Origin: an uncultured Planctomycetaceae bacterium
GTDB taxonomy: Bacteria; Planctomycetota; Phycisphaerae; SM23-33
Assembly: GCA_964472875.1 (NCBI GenBank)
Contig: CAYYMD010000005.1
Coordinates: 7,670-71,669 of the forward strand
DNA length: 64,000 bases
Direction: 5' to 3'
The notes below the pieces were generated by a model. That model searched no databases, was not told where the DNA came from, and was given only the letters and a program-made list of their open reading frames with translations. This document shows, in pieces, positions 36,294 through 39,561 of this stretch. Numbering within the stretch: the first letter of the stretch is position 1; every line of letters begins with the position of its first letter. A program made the translations under genes and the position numbers.

Positions 36294-37379
36294 TCAATCG
36301 ATGGGAAGTTGAGGTGGCCGCGACTTTTTATCGCTTCCAGACTCGGGCTTTGGCTTAGGTGGCTTTACGCCTTTACACTTATATTGCCACACTATGATAG
36401 TCCACTTGTCACGGGTGGTGGGCACCCACCCTGCTGCTAAAGAGTATTCGTCGCTAACGCGACGCGCACGGACATAGAGTTCAAAACTATCGGGCCAGAC
36501 GACAAATCGCACGTACCGCTTATCTTTGTCCGTATGCCGCAACACTCGTTGAAAAAGACTGTGCGGCATTTGGATTCGATTTATTGTTTCGCCGCCTCCG
36601 CGCTTACGGTTCAATACCACTTGTACCCCTCGCCAGTGTGGCTCGACGGTGTATCTAAAATCGTTCGTTCCCAGATTGTGGTTCTGGAAATACTCCGCAA
36701 GCACCTTGCAATCGACAGGGGCTGTTTTGTCCGACCGATTGGGAAAGCAATGTCGAACAATCGCACTGACGACCTTTTTGACGTTATCGTAACTGACATG
36801 ATACAGACGACCCTCCCGGCAAAGAAATAATACGGGCCTGGCGCCTTTCGGCGCCGGGCGGGGATTTGGAAGAGTCACGATTTTTGGTGGCGGCGCTTTG
36901 ACCTTCGCCACCTCAGCCAGCTGTGTCTGGATACGGTCCTCTTGCTGATCGAGCTTACCGATTTGCTCGGTGAGTTTATTGATTTCGTTCTTGCGTTGTG
37001 TCAGGAGTTTTTCAACCTTTTGTTTGAACTTGTCCGGCTCAGTGGGTTCAGATAGCTGCTTTTGCAGACCGGCGATGCGCTGCTGTGTCTCGTCGAGTCG
37101 GCGACGCAATTCAGGCAGATGCTTCTTTTTCTGGTTCCATTGACGAAGCAGTTGATTGATTTCTTGTTCCTGTTGATTGGCTTTCTTCTCGGCCAGCGCC
37201 AGCTGCCGTCTGCTGACTACCGGAATGTCTTGCTCCGCGCGTAAAACCCTCTTGACCGCATCAGCGACATTAAGTTGCGTAACCACCAGCAGAATAACCA
37301 GAATGCCGACAACGTTAGTCATCGTGTCAAGCAGTGAATCGAGACTCCCAATTTCGGTTTTTCGCCTGCGTCGCGACAT
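36294..37379 (-). CDS. ExbD/TolR-like protein with about 120-aa coiled-coil spacer and divergent C-terminal periplasmic domain (paralog 2)
   Basis: Basic N-terminus plus an ExbD-like TM (MSRRRRKTEIGSLDSLLDTMTNVVGILVILLVV), a long Q/K/E-rich coiled coil, and a C-terminal domain whose pattern resembles ExbD (YVRFVVWPDSFELYVRARRV…AAGWV). Third gene of the operon headed by the MotA/ExbB-like gene. Confidence 0.55.
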   Translation of the reverse strand: MSRRRRKTEIGSLDSLLDTMTNVVGILVILLVVTQLNVADAVKRVLRAEQDIPVVSRRQLALAEKKANQQEQEINQLLRQWNQKKKHLPELRRRLDETQQRIAGLQKQLSEPTEPDKFKQKVEKLLTQRKNEINKLTEQIGKLDQQEDRIQTQLAEVAKVKAPPPKIVTLPNPRPAPKGARPVLFLCREGRLYHVSYDNVKKVVSAIVRHCFPNRSDKTAPVDCKVLAEYFQNHNLGTNDFRYTVEPHWRGVQVVLNRKRGGGETINRIQMPHSLFQRVLRHTDKDKRYVRFVVWPDSFELYVRARRVSDEYSLAAGWVPTTRDKWTIIVWQYKCKGVKPPKPKPESGSDKKSRPPQLPID

Positions 37380-37382
37380 GAT

Positions 37383-38189
37383 TTATTTTCCTTCAAAATG
37401 AGACAGATCAATCTTCCCCTCCCCCAGAACGGGAAGTTTACCGACTTGGCATTTATATTTCCATGCCTGATTGCGCATCGGTCTAATCAATCCTATAGAA
37501 TTGGGGCGAACCAGCAGGACCGCAACGCCTTTGCGCCTCTTCGCCGTACGGGAGAACACTTTAGCCAGTTCGGAAGAGTTTCCTATATCTTTCTGGTGAA
37601 TACGTACCGGCGGATCGCTGCTGTGGATTATAACATGGGGGTTGTCGAGTTCTATAAAAGCCGGCTGCATATTAACCCCGGAGCCGCTGGCGCGTATGCT
37701 GACACGCGGTTTCCTCAAAGATTGCTTTTCCTCCAGTTGCTGTTTGAGTTGCTTAATTTTCTCCTGCTGTTTGTGATATTGCTGCTGAAATGTTTGGATT
37801 CTCAGTTTCAGTCTTTCGGCTTCTTCCAGGCGCTTGGCTACTTCGCCGCTTTGCCTTTTAATTCTTTTCAACCGAACCTGTAACTGCTCAAGTTGTTGGC
37901 GATTCTTATTTAACTGATCGTTCAGTTTTTGGGCTTCATCGATTCGTTTTTGCAGTTGAGCAATCTGGTCGCTACGCTCCTTGTCGGAGCGGACCAACTG
38001 CGCATATCGTTGGGCCCGCTTTTTTGCCTCGACCAGTTCTCGCTCCGCTTTGGCTACCGCCTGCGGGTCCAATTGCCCCAGGGCCATAGCCGTGATCATC
38101 AATGTCAGAGTGCCTATTACACACGCCAGGATGCTCAGGAACGGAAACAGGGAAACGATATTCGCATTTTTACGCTTTCGACGGGCCAT
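37383..38189 (-). CDS. ExbD/TolR-like protein with coiled-coil spacer and divergent ExbD-like periplasmic domain (paralog 1)
   Basis: MARRKRKNANIVSLFPFLSILACVIGTLTLMI (basic N-terminus plus TM), a roughly 120-aa coiled coil, and a C-terminus (HVIIHSSDPPVRI…GVAVLLVRPNSIGLIRPMRNQAWKYKCQVGKLPV) that follows the ExbD periplasmic-domain pattern. Overlaps the upstream MotA-like gene by 20 nt. Confidence 0.55.
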   Translation of the reverse strand: MARRKRKNANIVSLFPFLSILACVIGTLTLMITAMALGQLDPQAVAKAERELVEAKKRAQRYAQLVRSDKERSDQIAQLQKRIDEAQKLNDQLNKNRQQLEQLQVRLKRIKRQSGEVAKRLEEAERLKLRIQTFQQQYHKQQEKIKQLKQQLEEKQSLRKPRVSIRASGSGVNMQPAFIELDNPHVIIHSSDPPVRIHQKDIGNSSELAKVFSRTAKRRKGVAVLLVRPNSIGLIRPMRNQAWKYKCQVGKLPVLGEGKIDLSHFEGK

Positions 38190-39561
38190 TACCTTTGTTT
38201 TTCTTCCTCAGAGCGCCCCAGTTGAATAAACCGCGCTTCCGCACCTCCACGACGACATGTTCATGCCCGAGTTTTTCCAGCACCCGGTTCAGCGATGCCA
38301 TCCCCTCTTCCAGGCCGGTGAAGCAGCGATGAATTCTATCCGTCGTTTCAGTCAGCGACTGACTTAATTCGGTGTGCGCAGACTTCGAGCGTTCGCTGAT
38401 GGTCTCCATATTCGCGGCTGCTTCCTGCCCGACAACCTCGGCTTGTTCATGTATCGTTTGGGCGATATGCTCCATCTGGGCGATTTGAGACTCATGAAGT
38501 TCGGTAACTTTTTCCTGCACTTGTCTGATTTCGGAGTAAACTTCCGGTGCAAGTTGCCCCGTGGCCGAGGCACCGCCACCACCGTCGTCCAGCCGTTTAA
38601 GCAGGTTTTCGTTGCAGTACTCATCGACCCAATTGAGCAGGTCGTCCTCGCTCTTTTGCAGTGCGTGGGAGGGTATGGCGATTATCAGACTCATCACCAG
38701 CGCCACAAGCGTGGTGTCGAATGCGATGCCGAGCCCGGTTGTTACAGTGCCGAGTTTCGCCTTGAGGTCTTCGATGTCGGCGCCGGAATCCAGTTCACCG
38801 CTGAATCCGCCAACCGCGGCGCTGATGCCGATTACCGTACCAATAAACCCCAGAATAGGAATCGCCCACGTGAAAACGCGCACAAGCGTGTAACTGGACT
38901 CAACGGCATTGGCGTCAATATCAGACTGACTGTTCATCAGCGAGGCAACCTCACCGTTATTTCGACGAGCCGTGAAATGCTCCAGGCCACGAAGTACACG
39001 GTTTATCATGAAACTTCCGGAAGCCCGCACGGGCAACTTTCTGACGTGAGAGATGAACTTCTCGGCGTTGTGAGCAGTTATGGTGTCGGCTATTATATTG
39101 GGCAGGACATCGAACAGCATTACGTCGCGATGTCGTCGATGACGCAGCCATTTAAGCACAAGTATCGCTACCGACCATCCGAATAGAAGAACCAGCACGA
39201 ACGGAACCCACCCGCGCCGCCAGAACAAGTCGTGGAAATAAGTTCCTTTAAAGGGCAGGATAACCACCATGAACGCTGCGGCGATTATCAAGCCAACTAT
39301 AAAACTTCGAAGCGGGCTTACATTAACGCCCGTGCCGCCGAGTTCCGCCACGGCTTTACTGGCTACCTTTTTTGAAGTCTTAGCGGATATTTTCTCCGAG
39401 GTTGTTTCCGCGGGCCTGGCCGTGGGAATCGTCGCTTTAGATTGACAAGGAATTATTACCGTATTCTTACAGTATGGACAACGTGCTTTTTTACCCCTTT
39501 TGTCCTCTTGTGCCCGAAGATCTTTGCCACAGTGTTCACATGTGAATTTAAAGTAATTCAT
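38170..39561 (-). CDS. MotA/TolQ/ExbB-family proton channel with N-terminal C4 zinc ribbon and C-terminal coiled-coil tail
   Basis: N-terminal [10 protein letters not shown]…ARCPYCKN zinc ribbon. TM helices and a MotA/ExbB core ([21 protein letters not shown]…[21 protein letters not shown]). Roughly 130-aa C-terminal helical tail. Confidence 0.75.
   Translation of the reverse strand: [463 protein letters not shown]

Follow-up and report, generated by a model that had tools for sequence, protein, structure and literature searches.

A window of 64,000 nucleotides (nt) from an uncultured Planctomycetaceae bacterium (GenBank assembly GCA_964472875.1, contig CAYYMD010000005.1, positions 7,670 to 71,669; the window is this whole stretch, numbered from its first letter) contains three consecutive genes on the minus strand, referred to here as g1, g2 and g3. 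The first gene, g1 (38170-39561), encodes a divergent channel subunit of the MotA/TolQ/ExbB family (PF01618) of 463 residues, which is presumed to form a pentameric ring. It is followed by g2 (37383-38189), which codes for 268 residues, and g3 (36294-37379), which codes for 361 residues. The products of both genes are discussed below as putative TolR-like axle paralogues; the one encoded by g3, which also resembles ExbD, carries a conserved aspartate in its transmembrane (TM) segment, and the one encoded by g2 does not. According to the open reading frame (ORF) coordinates, the end of g1 shares 20 nt with the start of g2, and a gap of 3 nt lies between g2 and g3, which confirms the layout proposed in an earlier interpretation of the window made from its letters (the sequence-only reading). 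The three genes are translationally coupled in the window, and this was counted toward an axle role of g2 and g3. A sigma-70-like promoter site, TTTTCA-17-TATAAT with a TG element, is situated ~55 nt upstream of the g1 start (39616..39644, minus strand); it is a consensus match only, at 10 of 12 positions.

A collection of 5.8 billion proteins contains more than 1480 full-length homologues of g1, 846 of g3 and 301 of g2. Because each has hundreds of full-length homologues, g1, g2 and g3 are real genes rather than chance ORFs. Where the relatives are named, they come from genomes and metagenome-assembled genomes (MAGs) of Planctomycetota, and those of g2 and g3 are mostly annotated as "hypothetical" and those of g1 as "MotA/TolQ/ExbB proton channel family protein".

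The channel subunit g1

The g1 protein starts with a zinc ribbon of the four-cysteine (C4) type (residues 1–38; 39448..39561, minus strand), which is probably cytoplasmic. Conservation was read from an alignment of 35 homologues, and the four cysteines Cys-8, Cys-11, Cys-28 and Cys-31, arranged as CxxC...CxxC, are invariant in all 35 of them. Next comes a linker of ~45 residues that shows little conservation (39310-39447, minus strand). When a profile of the zinc ribbon alone was compared with the sequences in the PDB, the top match was the zinc-ribbon domain of GltJ/AgmX (7zok, E 4e-4). In Myxococcus, the GltJ zinc ribbon and its flexible linker act as a protein-interaction switch (PMC11135422).

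Four hydrophobic segments were found in g1 by a hydropathy scan, at approximately residues 85–105, 118–138, 228–252 and 275–298. The first two correspond to TM1 and TM2 (residues 85–138; 39148..39309, minus strand), and the other two form the channel core TM3-TM4 (residues 228–298; 38668..38880, minus strand). The core includes the string AFDTTLVAL as well as the invariant residues Pro-235, Gly-241, Thr-242, Thr-283 and Thr-284, and the G-T-V-x-G and TT motifs of TM3 and TM4 are also present in the canonical ExbB proteins encoded in the window. The match to the Pfam family MotA_ExbB covers residues 190–303 with 32.8 bits (cut-off 22.9, E 6.7e-8), and the homologues P0033 and P0113 gave the same outcome. 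By comparison, the canonical ExbBs of the window score 60 and 109 bits. A phmmer search with g1 against all ORFs of the window did not detect these ExbBs, indicating that g1 is highly divergent. Both the MotA/TolQ/ExbB core and the zinc ribbon had been predicted by the sequence-only reading, and g1 is a membrane protein of the MotA/ExbB family with channel-lining TM3/TM4 motifs.

The additional TM pair at the N terminus means that the zinc ribbon and the C-terminal tail can both be placed in the cytoplasm in the topology proposed here. The tail (residues 299–463; 38173..38667, minus strand) is longer than the ~130 residues estimated before, with ~165 residues in total, but it is helical as stated then. 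A conserved box comes first, then a glycine hinge and a helical region whose length varies, and the end is again conserved. Past the glycine-rich hinge (residues 327–339) the sequence is heptad-like and mostly free of proline and glycine. In the alignment of 35 homologues, the C terminus is conserved as L..LN.VL..LGEKQVVI followed by a basic end of the RRGW type.

The top match of the g1 family profile among the PDB sequences is ZorA (8vvn_C, E 5e-4), in an alignment that spans the core and the tail. None of the ExbB, TolQ and MotA chains in the PDB was matched at E < 1, and the match to GldL was of the tail type only (E 0.21). The PADLOC models for ZorA gave weak matches that reach E 1e-7, matches to the tail included, and a helical cytoplasmic tail is common to g1 and ZorA (PMC11946911). 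These observations would fit an anti-phage sensor motor resembling Zorya, in which g1 would take the part of ZorA and signal through its cytoplasmic tail, g2 and g3 would be unusual substitutes for ZorB, and the effectors would be encoded elsewhere. However, the NCBIfam models for ZorA score only 14.3 (cut-off 100) and 7.6 (cut-off 190), and much of the ZorA signal lies in coiled-coil segments of the tail. The tail of ZorA extends over ~70 nm, in contrast to the ~165 residues of the g1 tail. The genomic evidence that bears on this alternative is given with the neighbourhood survey below.

The single-pass proteins g2 and g3

Family alignments show that g2 and g3 share one plan, in which a basic N terminus and one highly conserved TM segment precede a helical region of low conservation, and the C-terminal domain is conserved again. 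Comparison of the two families by hhalign gave a probability of 90% for the N termini and 96% for the C-terminal domains (E 1e-8). The two are therefore paralogous single-pass proteins, as had been proposed. No Pfam, NCBIfam or PADLOC family was found for either protein, all matches being coiled-coil noise, and the full-length family profiles likewise retrieved only noise of this type from the PDB sequences (SMC proteins, designed coils and apolipoproteins).

The basic N terminus and the TM segment SLDSLLDTMTNVVGILVILLVV of g3 lie within residues 1–36 (37272..37379, minus strand). Planctomycetota, Verrucomicrobiota and Lentisphaeria all conserve the TM motif SLDSLLDTMTNVVGIL. The codon of Asp-18 lies at 37326-37328. 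This residue is invariant in 40 of 40 aligned homologues, and it is kept in ~189 of the 192 representatives that were scored, with asparagine, glutamine or glycine in the three exceptions. When the N terminus of g3 was compared with an ExbD family profile by hhalign, a match of 89% (E 2e-6) was obtained that places SLLDT on the PLIDM of ExbD, so that Asp-18 falls on the ExbD aspartate. One member of the g3 family, P0448, reads NLAPLVDMMTNVV and thus contains the ExbD-type motif APLVDM.

The corresponding region of g2 covers residues 1–38 (38076..38189, minus strand) and includes the TM segment VSLFPFLSILACVIGTLTLMI. The strings quoted for both N termini in the sequence-only reading are present, but the TM segment of g2 contains no acidic residue. 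Its TM motif VSLFPFLSILACVIG has Ser-19 where g3 has Asp-18, which is the position of the ExbD/TolR aspartate in the hhalign register against g3 and ExbD. The N terminus of g2 aligns with the ExbD profile in the same register as g3, although not significantly. In one clade, with Pirellulales and Kuenenia labels, the serine is replaced by aspartate within the motif FPFLDILAC (loci L025, L028, L036, L039, L041, L044, L045, L049, L053, L058, L059, L062 and L077). The axle of this clade would therefore carry two aspartates.

Between the TM segment and the C-terminal domain, both proteins contain a helical stalk. The stalk of g2 (residues 43–160; 37710..38063, minus strand) is a nearly unbroken, helix-compatible and heptad-like stretch with one glycine and no proline, and its matches in Pfam and the PDB are of the coiled-coil type only. 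The stalk of g3 (residues 54–162; 36894..37220, minus strand) is helical with proline breaks at positions 89, 112 and 115. The coiled coils of ~120 residues that had been proposed for both proteins thus describe g2 well, but g3 does not form one continuous coil. In both g2 and g3, the TM segment and the head are spaced by 137–167 residues at 59 of the 64 loci compared, which represent all three phyla, and for g3 the spacing is ~140–160 residues at nearly all loci. The stalks had also been thought to suit the enlarged periplasm of planctomycetes. Although the stalks are present, this tie is weakened because Verrucomicrobiota and Lentisphaeria have the same stalk length. At four Prosthecobacter/Verrucomicrobiaceae loci (L074, L075, L080 and L081), g3 has 512–520 residues and g2 is of the usual length.

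The C-terminal domains are predicted to form periplasmic α/β heads. The g2 head (residues 160–268; 37386..37712, minus strand) has a putatively TolR-like fold, and the paralogous g3 head (residues 163–335; 36375..36893, minus strand) contains an inserted helical sub-region. AlphaFold2 models of the heads are confident, with predicted local distance difference test (pLDDT) values of 94.7 and 91.5. The nearest solved fold to both is the periplasmic domain of TolR, at a level where many unrelated α/β folds score similarly, and a Foldseek search of the PDB with the g3 head gave no significant match (E 0.39). The Pfam ExbD family (PF02472), which detects the window's own ExbD with 77.6 bits, matched neither full-length g2 nor g3, and it did not match any of 25 g2 constructs from which the coiled coil had been deleted, at E <= 10. 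ExbD, TolR and MotB sequences in the PDB were also not matched by g2 or g3, including the coiled-coil-deleted g2 constructs.

The g3 head is widespread, with 1316 proteins at E <= 1e-3 in a library of 1.84 billion representatives. Among the 150 best representatives, nearly all that are full-length have a head starting at about residue 140–180, unlike entries that are shorter or fused. One protein with such a head, P0365 (757 residues), consists of a cytoplasmic Ser/Thr-kinase-like domain, one TM segment, a disordered proline-rich linker and a g3-type head that ends in ...PVDVID. This suggests that the head is an autonomous periplasmic binding module, and outside the motor context, in P0365, it is possibly a periplasmic sensor module.

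The g3 protein ends in an extended tail rich in proline and lysine (residues 336–361; 36297..36374, minus strand) that terminates in ...LPID-COOH, a feature overlooked by the sequence-only reading. The last residue is aspartate in 70 of the 71 genome loci. It is also aspartate in all 231 full-length representatives, where the final two residues are ID in 168, VD in 37, LD in 23, PD in 2 and AD in 1. This hydrophobic-Asp end looks like a docking peptide for a partner. Overall, g3 and, by way of its paralogy, g2 are best read as highly diverged axle subunits of the TolR/ExbD type that fall outside PF02472 as it is modelled.

Distribution and genomic neighbourhood

A scan of one genome per GTDB species revealed relatives of g1 in at least 586 genomes, and the best 80 of these were used to describe the taxonomic spread. 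They belong to Planctomycetota (Planctomycetia, Phycisphaerae and MAGs labelled Kuenenia), Verrucomicrobiota (Akkermansiaceae, Verrucomicrobiaceae and Opitutia) and Lentisphaeria, all within the Planctomycetes-Verrucomicrobia-Chlamydiae (PVC) superphylum. In a neighbor-joining tree, the g1 sequences cluster broadly by taxonomy, and a few sequences from Verrucomicrobiota and Lentisphaeria group with the planctomycete type. The tree points to inheritance that is vertical for the most part, along with ancient paralogy or a degree of transfer. Strain ZRK34 (CP050848) contains two complete trios at distant sites (L004 and L086).

The neighbourhood was surveyed at 84 loci from the three PVC phyla, using profile searches and all-against-all clustering of the neighbouring genes. 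The order g1-g2-g3 is conserved: g1 is present at all 84 loci, g2 adjoins it at 80, and g3 comes next at 71. The next most common neighbours are GFO/IDH/MocA oxidoreductases (17 of 84 loci) and sulfatases (10 of 84), whose recurrence reflects their general abundance in these genomes. Genes of the TonB, TolA, TolB, Pal, OmpA-like, flagellar, Glt and Zorya types do not recur beside the trio at these loci, and ExbD genes do not occur in the flanks as a local family. The trio is the only conserved neighbourhood, and it is a stand-alone module distinct from the Ton locus of the window. The sequence-only reading had remarked that partners such as TonB, TolA, Pal, OmpA-like or Zorya proteins are missing nearby, and the survey extends this to other genomes. 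It also removes the possibility, raised at that time, that the trio universally sits beside tonB or tolA elsewhere. A flagellar or gliding stator was considered as well and rejected. Neither flagellar genes nor recurrent Glt-like genes are found beside the trio.

For the Zorya-like alternative, the PADLOC models for ZorB, ZorC and ZorD found no match, and no effector-like neighbour recurs at the 84 loci. The large number of species genomes, the taxonomic clustering and the unrelated housekeeping and glycan neighbours are unlike the patchy occurrence of defence islands. Together with the low family scores of g1, these results make a Zorya-like sensor motor improbable.

A different explanation is that the trio represents one piece of a conventional Ton or Tol system, with the TonB, TolA or Pal genes located elsewhere in the genome. 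The Pfam family of g1 is the same as that of ExbB and TolQ, and operons are scattered in planctomycete genomes, which would be compatible with such an arrangement. The same window, however, encodes a full canonical Ton locus with a normal ExbB, ExbD, TonB and receptor, g1 scores far below the canonical ExbBs against their shared family, and TonB, TolA, TolB or Pal adjoins the trio at 0 of 84 loci. In addition, the zinc ribbon, the stalks, the heteromeric axle and the tail with its terminal aspartate are conserved features of the family and not products of decay. We regard this explanation as the least credible of those considered, with next to no likelihood.

The canonical Ton locus was correctly recognized as separate by the sequence-only reading. 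It is situated at 1-5814 on the minus strand and encodes TonB, which is truncated at the edge of the window, together with ExbD (PF02472, E 1e-21), ExbB, a long TtpC-like ExbB, a DUF3450 protein and a TonB-dependent receptor with a Plug domain. The TtpC-like ExbB has 445 residues, and the wider Ton-type cluster (1-7294, minus strand) also includes an anti-sigma-like protein with zf-HC2 and PQQ_2 domains. The genes that flank the trio, described earlier as a secreted glycoside hydrolase and a sulfatase, encode a glycoside hydrolase (GH) family 95 glycosidase and a sulfatase. Glycan-degradation genes are scattered through the window at 14406-17585, 18834-21335, 33823-36108, 40175-41578 and 56368-58185, and they encode a GH38 α-mannosidase, two GH95 enzymes, a sulfatase and a GH29 fucosidase. 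They suggest a diet of fucose- and mannose-rich sulfated polysaccharide. None of the window's glycan-degradation genes is linked to the trio in other genomes.

Elsewhere in the window, hydrogenase maturation genes are located at 46386-51145 on the minus strand (a HypE-like AIR-synthase-type protein, HypD and HypF), and no hydrogenase structural gene was identified among the window ORFs scanned. An ORF of 386 residues on the plus strand (9067-10227) has a type-IV-pilin-like N terminus, FTLVELLVVIFIIAMLVAILVP, which resembles the prepilin-type N termini common in planctomycete proteins; it has no Pfam match at E <= 1e-5. The G+C content dips to 0.48 at 8001-10000 and 62001-64000 and is 0.50–0.64 in the remaining window, with 0.50–0.53 in the region of the trio.

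Proposed motor and comparison with known systems

With a probability of roughly 0.7, we read the trio from its sequence features as one self-contained motor driven by ion-motive force, of the "5:2" kind known from MotA, ExbB and TolQ, which would be a lineage-wide component of PVC bacteria. Five g1 subunits would surround a heterodimer of g2 and g3. Ions would flow through a site formed by Asp-18 of g3 and the ring of g1 threonines, and this flow would make ring and axle turn against each other. Each of the two helical stalks is ~110 residues long and would keep its head at a constant height above the membrane, up to ~16 nm if the stalk is extended, where the heads of g2 and g3 could bind peptidoglycan or a partner. 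The proline-rich arm of g3, with its hydrophobic-Asp end, may reach a further partner encoded elsewhere, which would give this TolR-like protein a tether of its own, comparable to TonB. In the cytoplasm, docking or regulation may be the task of the helical tail and of the five zinc ribbons, each borne on a flexible linker.

Several results weigh against this reading. The aspartate found on both axle subunits of every solved 5:2 motor is missing from g2, and a heterodimeric axle with a single aspartate, as proposed here but unproven, has no precedent among those motors. In Gimesia (L012-L017 and L085), g1 and g2 are found together and g3 is alone elsewhere. Stalk length in g2 is uncorrelated with that in g3 (r = 0.04), because both are nearly constant, and g3 of the Prosthecobacter type carries ~150 extra residues between the TM segment and the head. 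No Pfam, NCBIfam, PADLOC or PDB sequence profile identifies g2 or g3 as ExbD, TolR, MotB or ZorB, even when the coiled coil is deleted. When the C-terminal domains of g2 and g3 were compared by hhalign with a profile built from 76 ExbD sequences from metagenomes, the probability was below 1%. The relationship to ExbD claimed by the sequence-only reading is thus retained for the TM segment of g3, whereas the C-terminal domains are unmatched and the profiles of Pfam, NCBIfam and the PDB are blind to it.

The same results can be accommodated if g2 and g3 are membrane-anchored periplasmic coiled-coil scaffolds of the PilN/PilO, GspL or FtsB/FtsL type, with any genuine ExbD/TolR partner of g1 encoded at another site. 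The failure of the ExbD and TolR profiles, the dissimilarity of the C-terminal domains to ExbD, the insignificant Foldseek result and the absence of an acidic residue from the g2 TM segment all agree with a scaffold, as do weak Pfam matches to PilO and FtsL_2 (E 0.3–0.5) and the occurrence of a g3-type head on the kinase-like P0365 without the g3 TM segment. A scaffold would not account for the match of the g3 TM segment to the ExbD profile in the register of the aspartate, for the family member with the motif APLVDM, or for the retention of the g3 aspartate across three phyla. Furthermore, no other ExbD-like gene recurs near g1 at the 84 loci, and an axle gene is almost always located directly behind a gene of the MotA family (PMC12505986; PMC9389320). 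On balance, we consider scaffolds unlikely, and the motor remains the preferred reading.

The role of the proposed motor can be addressed only with a guess. Tentatively, we favour housekeeping force transduction in the envelope, for example the tethering or remodelling of the outer membrane and cell wall in a manner similar to Tol-Pal. A housekeeping role is preferred over a cargo-specific or defence role because inheritance is largely vertical, the neighbourhoods are unrelated and the lifestyles of the hosts are very different. Uptake of macromolecules is a more doubtful option, and other roles share what is left. A bolder reading, which we also put forward tentatively, is that the trio represents an undescribed class of 5:2 motor, ancestral to PVC bacteria and retained by them. 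It would combine an asymmetric heterodimer of the TolR type, with one proton-carrying aspartate in place of two, a shaft of fixed length, a g3 proline arm with a C-terminal hydrophobic-Asp hook and five zinc-ribbon switches, and it would power an envelope process specific to PVC bacteria. Candidates for this process are the coupling of outer membrane and cell wall in FtsZ-independent or otherwise unusual division, or energy-dependent uptake of macromolecules. Such a motor would act in place of, or alongside, Tol-Pal and Ton.

The 5:2 motors, including MotAB, ExbBD, TolQR, GldLM and ZorAB, are a small set of machines that use a flow of ions to perform mechanical work across the envelope of bacteria. 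The trio would add a family that combines three features not previously seen together. The first is the heteromeric axle, whose one aspartate is directly relevant to the question of how rotation is driven when two aspartates are protonated in turn. The other two are the built-in periplasmic stalks of fixed length and the self-contained proline-rich tether with its invariant terminal aspartate. In Planctomycetota, Verrucomicrobiota and Lentisphaeria, the organization of the envelope, cell division and the uptake of macromolecules have long been debated, and few envelope machines have been characterized. The trio, as a putative variant of the MotA/ExbB-type motor, is widespread in one superphylum and has several unusual features but no curated family; g2 and g3 are without a Pfam or NCBIfam family, even though the g3 head alone accounts for 1316 representative protein clusters. 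Genes of the MotA/ExbB family are listed in the supplements to transposon data for Planctopirus limnophila and Verrucomicrobium spinosum, and the genetic systems and transposon libraries of these two species make the function directly testable (PMC10632474; PMC12283558).

Literature searches gave no description of a zinc-ribbon MotA protein with coiled-coil TolR-like partners, in agreement with the statement of the sequence-only reading that the architecture matches no known system. The trio could not be placed in the MotAB/PomAB group, since the OmpA and MotB families of Pfam and NCBIfam are unmatched in g2 and g3 and no flagellar genes flank the trio. Zorya ZorA-ZorB is the closest match to g1 among the PDB sequences, and it is a 5:2-type complex whose channel subunit has a helical cytoplasmic tail (PMC11946911). 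Unlike ZorA-ZorB, the trio stays below the family cut-offs, has a far shorter tail, lacks the peptidoglycan-binding domain of ZorB as well as ZorC and ZorD, and follows a lineage-wide, mostly vertical distribution that is not of the defence-island type.

The gliding motor AglR-AglQ-AglS of Myxococcus similarly consists of one TolQ-like subunit and two different TolR/MotB-like subunits (PMC9389320), and a zinc-ribbon module of the GltJ type belongs to the same machinery (PMC11135422). In contrast to g2, which usually has a serine, both AglQ and AglS carry the conserved aspartate (PMC9389320). The zinc ribbon is located on GltJ and not on the channel subunit, and Agl works with ~17 Glt proteins, whereas no comparable set recurs beside the trio. 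The resemblance to GldL-GldM and PorL-PorM, which serve type IX secretion and gliding in Bacteroidota, is one of analogy only, in that the inner dimer forms a long periplasmic shaft, of ~18 nm in GldM, by which motion would be transmitted away from the membrane (PMC9389320). The Pfam families GldL, GldM and PorM are unmatched by g1, g2 and g3, and the shaft of the trio would consist of a helical stalk and a TolR-like head on a heteromeric axle rather than four Ig-like or mixed domains.

Closer in phylogeny are loci from PVC bacteria in which a tolQ-like gene is accompanied by two heterologous tolR-like genes, a tetratricopeptide repeat (TPR) gene and von Willebrand factor A (vWA) transducers, and which have been proposed to form a motor-driven force transducer (PMC12204202). 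They share the superphylum and the logic of one channel gene plus two partner genes with the trio. What defines them, however, is that TPR and vWA genes with a TonB-like SHLS helix lie beside the motor genes, which may or may not be of the same family as those of the trio. At the 84 loci of the trio, neither TPR nor vWA families recur as neighbours, and TPR genes are found downstream at L002 only.

The core of the trio is closest in its working to TolQ-TolR and ExbB-ExbD, although it could be assigned to neither system. TonB, recognizable by a TM segment with an SHLS motif, a proline-rich spacer and a C-terminal domain, does not recur beside the trio at the 84 loci; tolA, tolB and pal do not recur either in these 84 neighbourhoods, to which the survey of these genes was confined. 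Compared with TolQ and ExbB, g1 is enlarged by a zinc ribbon, by two more TM segments near the N terminus and by a tail of ~165 residues. Two diverged axle paralogues replace the single gene, with serine for aspartate in g2, and helical stalks of ~110 residues separate the TM segments from heads that are invisible to ExbD profiles. The proline-rich arm is part of g3 itself, in a neighbourhood without TonB, TolA, TolB and Pal. What the trio shares with these systems is a MotA_ExbB channel subunit with GTVxG and TT motifs, a channel gene followed by single-pass proteins with a basic N terminus, a TM aspartate of g3 in the register of ExbD, and probably small periplasmic α/β heads, for which TolR is the nearest solved fold.

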